From a virus (taxonomy: Duplodnaviria; Heunggongvirae; Uroviricota; Caudoviricetes): a stretch of DNA of 9,500 nucleotides. The stretch spans positions 1 through 9,500 of the IMG/VR virus record IMGVR_UViG_2585427755_000002; one strand, written 5' to 3'. The notes beneath the pieces are model-generated. The model saw only the letters and a list, made by a program, of their open reading frames with translations. It had not been told where the DNA came from and did not search any database. Each line of letters begins with the position of its first letter. The stretch's first letter is position 1. The translations under genes and the position numbers were made by a program. Positions 1-696 of the stretch are shown in pieces.

Positions 1-373
1 CCGTTTTCTCGTACTTACTGATAGTGATCTCGACCTTCCCTTCCGGGATAACCGGTCCCCACTCCACCAGCATTCTTTTCACCTGACTGTCGTCTTCCCA
101 CACACCCGCGTGGGTCAGGGCGTCAAACAGCGCCTTGTTATAGTTGTCCAGATCGCGGATCCGGTTATCCGGCGGAAACAACACGATCTCCACTGAAGCA
201 GGTGCCGACGTTGGTTTCGGCAGACGACGTAACTGCTCAACTATTGCTGCACACGCCGCGCTCTGGAATTTGCGCCCCGCCGCGCTTATCAGGCTCTTAC
301 CAGCAAACGCCCCTTTGTTGGGGTGTCGCCAGTACGTGTTCACGCTGGGCGGGAAAGGCAGGATCAGCTTCAT
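1..373 (-). CDS. rusA: RusA-family Holliday junction resolvase (3' end truncated by window edge)
   Basis: My own translation of the minus strand from ATG at 373..371: MKLILPFPPSVNTYWRHPNKG...RIRDLDNYNKALFDALTHAGVWEDDSQV..., open to position 1 with no stop. The DLDN...FDALT acidic motif is characteristic of RusA. It is absent from the ORF track because it is incomplete. Its ATG overlaps the upstream stop as ATGA. Confidence 0.8.
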   Translation of the reverse strand, partial: MKLILPFPPSVNTYWRHPNKGAFAGKSLISAAGRKFQSAACAAIVEQLRRLPKPTSAPASVEIVLFPPDNRIRDLDNYNKALFDALTHAGVWEDDSQVKRMLVEWGPVIPEGKVEITISKYEKT

Positions 374-696
374 ACTTTCAGGCCCCTCTCATGTAACCAG
401 TGGGCTGCACGCAGCCTGGCGTTTTCCTCACCGGCAAGCAGTGAGCGGATAATCCCGACCGCCTCGCTGTCGTCGTCCTTCACCGCGGTATGAAGCGTTA
501 TCCCCCGGGCCACGCCACGCTTTATCGTGATGACGCCTTTTTTCTCCAGTGCACGAAGATGCTCCACTGCTGCATTCACTGAACGATATCCCAGCATGGT
601 TGCCACCTCCTGATTGGTTGGCGGGAAGCCACGTTCTTTCTGATAAGAAATCAGCATATCCAGCACCTGCTGCTGGCATTGAGTTAACGTCGTCAT
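370..696 (-). CDS. LexA N-terminal DNA-binding-domain-only protein (108 aa, no S24 peptidase domain)
   Basis: MTTLTQCQQQVLDMLISYQKERGFPPTNQEVATMLGYRSVNAAVEHLRALEKKGVITIKRGVARGITL aligns position by position with the E. coli LexA winged-helix domain as I recall it (LTARQQEVFDLI...[36 protein letters not shown]...SRGIRL). The protein ends after about 35 more residues with no Ser/Lys protease domain. ATG at 696..694 follows a GGAGA Shine-Dalgarno and overlaps the Dam stop as ATGA. Confidence 0.8.
   Translation of the reverse strand: MTTLTQCQQQVLDMLISYQKERGFPPTNQEVATMLGYRSVNAAVEHLRALEKKGVITIKRGVARGITLHTAVKDDDSEAVGIIRSLLAGEENARLRAAHWLHERGLKV

Follow-up and report, generated by a model that had tools for sequence, protein, structure and literature searches.

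A stand-alone LexA-type DNA-binding domain protein in the early operon of lambdoid prophages: a possible RecA-proof regulator

Among the proteins by which mobile elements damp the SOS induction of their host, some have RecA as their target, namely PsiB of plasmids and the DinI-like proteins of prophages. The Bacillus tectivirus GIL01 addresses LexA itself with its protein gp7, which binds LexA and blocks LexA cleavage (PMC4551915). A second protein of the same virus, gp6, is a truncated homologue of LexA; it binds the site GaCACAC-GTGTGaC at -43.5 of the late promoter P3 and activates this promoter, with the lysine at position 38 as key residue (PMC6182141). In the host, the natural N-terminal fragment of LexA shows weaker binding and is removed by ClpXP/Lon (PMC3159453). 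Here we analyse a gene for a 108-amino-acid LexA-like protein located on a 9,500-nucleotide stretch of viral DNA (positions 1 to 9,500 of IMG/VR record IMGVR_UViG_2585427755_000002), in the following called the window. This DNA comprises the immunity and early region of a lambdoid prophage of E. coli/Shigella, and Shigella phage SfII shows 98% identity to it across 64% of its length. In Shiga toxin (Stx) phages a protein family with pfam01726 has been catalogued without study as pham 237, with members in 15 phages (PMC8136144); this is most likely the family of the gene described here. The gene and its parts are the following.

370..696, minus strand: LexA-like gene of 108 amino acids with ATG start (PF01726; PHROG 362; 'LexA family transcriptional regulator' in PGAP)
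490..696, minus strand: winged helix-turn-helix, codons 1-69 (helices 6-22, 28-35 and 40-52; wing strands 56-58 and 66-68)
541..582, minus strand: recognition helix SVNAAVEHLRALEK, codons 39-52, from the alignment to E. coli LexA
391..471, minus strand: two-helix hairpin, codons 76-102 (helices 76-88 and 93-102; predicted local distance difference test score, pLDDT, of the model ~90 there)
704..709, minus strand: Shine-Dalgarno-like GGGAGA, 7 nucleotides 5' of the ATG of the LexA-like gene and within the end of dam

The match of the 370-696 product to the LexA domain is far beyond chance. The Pfam profile LexA_DNA_bind (PF01726, score cutoff 23.7 bits) is matched over its complete length (positions 1-65 of 65) with an E-value of 2.9e-19 and 69 bits, and PHROG 362 is matched by residues 1-108 over profile positions 1-106 of 106 (E 1.4e-59). 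In a phmmer search against the PDB the first match is the N-terminal domain of E. coli LexA (1lea, E 7e-16, residues 2-69). A single-sequence structure prediction was too poor for use (pLDDT 60.9), and an AlphaFold2 model based on a 92-sequence alignment (pLDDT 84.9) was taken instead. When it is superposed on DNA-bound LexA from the complex 3jso, the root mean square deviation is 0.9 A over 67 columns at 51% identity, so that this check, which an earlier note on this DNA had proposed, bears out the note's reading of the fold. Placement in an unrelated winged-helix family is ruled out, since PF01726, the PDB search and the superposition all point to LexA.

The second half of LexA is missing. 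Peptidase_S24 (PF00717) gives no match in the LexA-like protein, while the neighbouring cI protein, serving as positive control, is matched at 6e-19. The lexA equivalog profile TIGR00498 reaches 70.8 bits, which is below its cutoff of 110.95, and only its positions 1-91 of 203 are matched. A remnant of an S24 domain 3' of the gene is impossible, because rusA starts at the stop codon of the LexA-like gene in an ATGA overlap. Therefore the claim of the earlier note, a winged helix of the LexA type which lacks the Ser/Lys autocleavage domain, was confirmed. By its profile matches the protein is a member of PF01726 and PHROG 362 and not a LexA orthologue, because it has no S24 domain, scores under the TIGR00498 cutoff and possesses no conserved Ala-Gly cleavage site.

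Comparing the protein with the N-terminal domain of E. coli LexA (1lea/3jso) reveals the same fold and identical residues at S39, N41, A42 and E45 as well as in the wing (R64-G65-I66). The differences are the lack of the S24 peptidase/dimerisation domain with Ser119/Lys156 and of a conserved Ala-Gly site, the exchange of E44 for V, and a two-helix tail which is present only in the phage protein. The residues of LexA reported to contact the DNA are Ser39, Asn41, Ala42, Glu44 and Glu45 (PMC3091678). At these positions the window protein has S39, N41, A42, V44 and E45, i.e. four out of five are identical to E. coli LexA. The earlier note had asked whether the DNA-contacting residues are conserved, and this holds for S39, N41, A42 and E45 but not for position 44. 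Across the family S39 is invariant, N41 nearly invariant, and the wing residues R64-G65-I66 are invariant. The reading head S39/N41/A42/E45 is kept throughout the subfamily with 80-100% identity and also in the mEp390-type branch (47% identity). A comparison of reading heads by protein length class is confounded by gene fragments from metagenomes, and only the replacement of E44 in the tail-bearing proteins was used from it.

The tail sets the protein apart as a member of a family which we define here: the tail-bearing stand-alone LexA-domain proteins of lambdoid prophages, with a length of ~105-135 amino acids, into which the window protein fits. In homologues of 106-135 amino acids the tail is conserved down to 39% identity, and A97 and L101 are invariant in the family alignment. 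It has no counterpart in LexA and no fold or sequence match to any PDB entry. The hairpin, 30 residues standing where LexA has its S24 domain, is presumed to be a dimerisation or partner-binding module. The stretch 'LLAGE' (residues 86-90) within the tail aligns with the LexA cleavage site 'VAAGE'. As a family feature, a vestigial or trans-cleavable cleavage site was rejected, since A-G is found in only about half of the family and the stretch lies at the end of a confidently modelled helix; we treat the resemblance as coincidence or vestige. Cleavage in trans by host LexA or UmuD is nevertheless conceivable.

A different architecture is seen in seven database proteins (P0132, P0133, P0148, P0152, P0153, P0156 and P0160), which consist of two tandem LexA DNA-binding domains without an S24 domain. 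This is an alternative solution to dimerisation, a built-in pseudo-dimer.

The genetic neighbourhood of the LexA-like gene on the window is given by three further genes on the same strand.

1358-1840, minus strand: PerC-like gene, upstream of Dam
693-1379, minus strand: Dam, phage N6-adenine methyltransferase (PF05869, E 8.6e-46; TIGR01712, 255 bits)
1..373, continuing past the edge of the window, minus strand: RusA Holliday-junction resolvase (PF05866, E 5.3e-15; PHROG 34)

The start codon of the LexA-like gene overlaps the stop codon of Dam (ATGA at 693-696), and its stop codon overlaps the start of rusA (ATGA at 370-373). Neither a promoter nor a terminator of its own was predicted for the LexA-like gene, and no minus-strand terminator was predicted between Dam, the LexA-like gene and rusA. 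The 4-nucleotide overlaps and the lack of an intervening predicted terminator uphold the claim of a shared operon with Dam and rusA, which is also backed by the synteny kept in homologues of 65%, 51% and 47% identity. In four database entries (P0021, P0092, P0098, P0120) Dam and the LexA-like domain are fused in a single open reading frame (ORF), most likely as a result of frameshifts or of reading through the ATGA overlap.

The slot of the gene in the early rightward operon lies 3' of the replication, PerC and (Dam) genes and 5' of rusA, followed by DUF968 and Q. It is shared by the window, mEp390 (47% identity), a prophage of E. coli 20Ec-P-124, the Citrobacter prophages (65%) and the 51% homologue, where one opposite-strand gene lies between the LexA-like gene and rusA. 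Dam is not found beside the LexA-like gene in mEp390 and in the Citrobacter prophages. In E. coli 20Ec-P-124 (L009, 32312-35200) the prophage, whose LexA-like gene is identical, adjoins zur and lies ~3 kb from the host dinF-lexA operon, which is probably a coincidence of the attachment site.

Between homologues the synonymous differences amount to 0.76-0.79 per site and are saturated, and the non-synonymous differences to 0.20-0.38 per site. The ratio of non-synonymous to synonymous change (dN/dS) of the N-terminal domain is 0.09-0.15, and by this measure the gene is under purifying selection. In total 2233 of 5426 complete E. coli genomes (41%) harbour the gene with an intact ORF, in up to four copies per genome. 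In addition, 61 phage records carry it, among them SfV (orf42), SfII, SfIV, mEp460, cdtI and many Stx2c and Stx2a phages; the identity is 95-100% in 50 phage records. Existing database labels are 'LexA family transcriptional regulator' or 'LexA DNA binding domain protein', so that the sequence and the domain call are already known from databases. New in this paper are the definition of the tail-bearing family, its fixed operon position, the comparison of the reading heads and the uncoupling from a LexA box in cI, which is described below. An assignment to a defence system was rejected, because PADLOC gave only a marginal CARF match (3.6e-4).

The best-supported mechanism for this protein, to which we hold only tentatively, is that of a LexA-type operator or SOS-box binder which RecA* would not be able to inactivate. 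We infer its DNA target, its oligomeric state, repression and the benefit for the phage as follows. The protein would be synthesised only while the rightward early operon runs, that is after infection or induction, and its translation would be coupled to that of Dam and RusA. It would recognise CTGT half-sites, namely those of host SOS boxes of the CTGT-N8-ACAG type, and would bind as a dimer via the helical hairpin and/or via LexA-style contacts between the DNA-binding domains on the operator. In this way some or all LexA-controlled promoters might be held shut while host LexA is or has been destroyed, and the silenced promoters would be those of SOS functions, SOS-induced toxins, colicins and antirepressors of rival prophages. 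The repression would persist despite RecA*, because the protein has neither a cleavage site nor the catalytic Ser/Lys.

The host-like reading head together with the conserved extra helical module speaks indirectly for a recognition of SOS boxes. The DNA-binding domains of LexA have an extensive mutual interface on the operator, which raises the stability of the dimer ~1000-fold (PMC3159453). With this interface and the conserved amphipathic hairpin, dimerisation of the phage protein is plausible without a C-terminal domain. As to the target, CTGT/ACAG half-sites at spacings other than 8 were counted on both strands of the window, of a complete carrier prophage and of mEp460, and no enrichment was found: there are 0-4 matches per spacing and no spacing is common to the three sequences. 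A comparison of short inverted repeats between the early regions of carriers whose reading heads differ likewise gave no candidate operator in common. Moreover, several prophages that carry the same or a related gene lack an SOS box. The target of the LexA-like protein is therefore probably not phage-borne, and host sites are plausible because no phage-borne site was found in carriers.

Several observations weigh against this mechanism. The S24 domain, which gives LexA its dimer in solution, is missing. Position 44 is never E in the tail-bearing family and is V in the window protein. The syntenic Citrobacter orthologue P0088 (65% identity) reads RSVNTIAGHL where the window protein reads RSVNAAVEHL, i.e. 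it has T42, I43 and G45, and the distant family members P0207, P0172 and P0220 are also altered at N41, A42 or E45. Therefore reading of a canonical SOS box is not a constraint on the whole family. The sole characterised phage protein made up of a LexA domain only, GIL01 gp6, has a new site and activates. Finally, a functional study of the gene was not found in the literature, where we met only GIL01 gp6 and mentions in gene catalogues.

Known states of LexA offer a comparison for such a RecA-proof binder. The isolated N-terminal cleavage fragment of LexA is the same domain as that of the LexA-like protein, and the phage protein differs from it by having its own tail. By analogy, the proposed state would resemble that of the LexA(Ind-) mutants (e.g. 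G85D, S119A; 1jhf, 1jhh), in which LexA-type operator binding is immune to RecA*, although these mutants retain the C-terminal dimerisation domain. At most, the protein would act as a natural LexA(Ind-) or in the manner of gp6. With gp7, PsiB and the DinI-like proteins the LexA-like protein would share the outcome, an SOS induction damped to the benefit of the element. However, those proteins work by protein-protein contacts with LexA or RecA, whereas the LexA-like protein would occupy the operators itself.

The further-reaching idea that the protein is a RecA-proof surrogate of LexA, which re-imposes the host SOS repression during induction or infection and thereby serves as a weapon between prophages and modifies SOS-dependent traits, among them mutagenesis and the induction of Shiga-toxin phages, is doubtful in our view. 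If the protein does act as such a surrogate, it would silence error-prone polymerases, SOS toxins, the lysis genes of colicins and, above all, those antirepressors of co-resident prophages which LexA controls. If it sits on SOS boxes, many lysogens of E. coli, Shigella and Shiga toxin-producing E. coli would partly switch SOS off once one prophage fires. This would affect how Stx and other prophages are induced in polylysogens, how colicins are released and how SOS drives mutagenesis in the presence of antibiotics. Phages would moreover have taken a second route, independent of that of the tectivirus GIL01, to reuse the DNA-binding domain of LexA. Should the protein bind another site, it would be a further small regulator of phages. 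Whichever holds, the gene already has its annotation, and about 40% of E. coli genomes carry it.

The first alternative, which we consider unlikely, is a transcription factor specific to the phage and comparable to gp6: a captured LexA domain which was re-tooled to a non-SOS site of phage or host, which activates or represses there, and which possibly has a role in timing delayed-early or late functions. GIL01 gp6 is the precedent for such a factor. The variation of the recognition-helix residues among the branches of the family, including the syntenic orthologue, would fit with it, as would the replacement of E44 throughout the tail-bearing family and a tail which could set a half-site spacing unlike that of LexA. 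However, the subfamily of the window keeps the four main base-reading residues of host LexA, which gp6 does not, and no conserved phage-borne palindrome or CTGT arrangement was found in the carriers, a search for which the binding motif was not known beforehand. Nor is there similarity to gp6 itself, as BLASTP gave no alignment at E <= 100. Because pairwise similarity is lacking, gp6 is an analogue from an independent capture of a Gram-positive LexA and not a relative. The two proteins are also different in organisation: gp6 has 66 amino acids, no helical tail, a diverged reading head (K38), a non-LexA palindrome and acts as an activator, whereas the window protein retains the host-like reading head and has no phage-borne site that we could find.

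Quite improbable is an accessory function in DNA metabolism, in which the winged helix would target or tether the O-like protein, Dam or RusA to DNA, or in which the tail would have a protein of host or phage as its partner. The gene does invariably lie amid genes for replication and recombination, its translation is coupled to that of Dam and RusA, and for its conserved tail no fold partner is known. Yet mEp390 and the Citrobacter prophages have no Dam beside the gene, so that no fixed partner besides RusA is left. Moreover, LexA-type winged helices are known solely as sequence-specific transcription factors, and the sequence gives no hint of an enzymatic or structure-specific DNA-binding role.

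That the gene is a functionless decaying fragment of a captured lexA, as its resemblance to the first half of lexA and the alignment of 'LLAGE' with 'VAAGE' might suggest, is effectively refuted by the strong purifying selection, the intact ORF in 2233 E. coli genomes and the conservation of length, non-LexA tail and synteny (homologues with 39-66% identity). In addition, 'AGE' varies within the family, and the model places it where a helix ends.

A LexA box of the phage itself is situated in the cI gene of the window, and the earlier note had named this box as one of the sites which the LexA-like protein could occupy.

4025-4717, plus strand: cI, divergent from the early genes of the minus strand (PF00717, E 6e-19)
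4234..4253, no strand assigned: near-consensus LexA (SOS) box TACTGTATATAAAAACAGTA in the linker-coding part of cI

The box shows 18 matches to the 20 consensus positions, and the next best site of the window 12, so that no second site of this kind exists in the window. Five diverged cI genes, those of mEp460, ST64B, Klebsiella P7641, Flotzy and phiNP, have it at the corresponding place. The identity of the cI DNA to the window is 70-93% across these five and 70-77% in ST64B, P7641, Flotzy and phiNP. The encoded residues vary (TVYKNS, TVCKHS, TVHINS) while CTG-N10-CAG is constant; because of this difference we regard the box as being under selection as DNA.

In four of these carriers of the box, ST64B, P7641, Flotzy and phiNP, the 6 kb on either side contain no LexA-like gene. 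On the other hand, no SOS box is present in a prophage whose LexA-like gene is 100% identical and whose cI is different; the same scan detected, as positive control, both boxes of the nearby host lexA promoter. An SOS box is also absent in the Citrobacter carriers, in the 51% homologue and in mEp390. A link between the LexA-like gene and the cI box was therefore rejected: the box follows the type of cI and occurs without the gene, and the gene occurs without the box. Since the box and the gene assort independently, the box belongs with the cI module, where it is best explained, from its distribution, as a site for host LexA and not as the target accounting for the LexA-like gene.

The surroundings of the box deserve a remark of their own. 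At 4211-4277 of the window it lies in a promoter-like frame which is conserved in all six phages (the window and L004, L005, L006, L007, L008). In all six, TTTAC(C/A) precedes TACTGT by exactly 17 nucleotides, a spacing at which the -10 element and the start site would both fall within the cI box. Further on by 20-35 nucleotides, just 5' of the 'SASAG' cleavage region, there is a GTG in frame, accompanied by a purine-rich stretch that resembles a Shine-Dalgarno sequence. This arrangement suggests a putative LexA-repressed internal promoter which, following DNA damage, might yield a cI fragment consisting of the C-terminal domain alone. Such a promoter within cI is not among the calls of the strict scan for promoters, and we found no paper on it in the literature.

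The remaining early genes of the window are the following.

3667-3927, minus strand: cro-like gene
3123-3674, minus strand: cII-like gene
1837-2778, minus strand: gene of the O-like replication protein

The O-like replication gene contains 4.3 tandem copies of the 15-bp unit CAGATTTTGACGGGT at 2406-2469 of the window, at the place where the repetitive Ser/Asp/Lys-rich segment of the O-like protein is encoded. These repeats are probably the iterons of the origin, comparable to lambda ori.

The PerC-like gene at 1358-1840 combines a C-terminal region of the PerC family (PF06069, E 8e-9) with weak N-terminal matches to MarR/BilQ-like winged helices. It represents a second small regulator in the operon of the LexA-like gene.

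Translation of Dam probably begins only at the ATG at 1346: the PADLOC match to MTase_II begins at residue 12 and the PGAP gene has 654 nucleotides. In several RefSeq phage records (e.g. NC_021857, NC_019716) Dam is labelled 'phosphoadenosine phosphosulfate reductase'. PHROG 33262 is a fusion family of 495 positions of which Dam covers only positions 283-492, and the label looks like an annotation artefact.

At the other side of the window most of the listed phage matches end at 7806-7808, where an ORF of 292 amino acids starts (7799-8677). This is a mosaic boundary, and the right-hand 1.7 kb (7806-9500) come from a different module.
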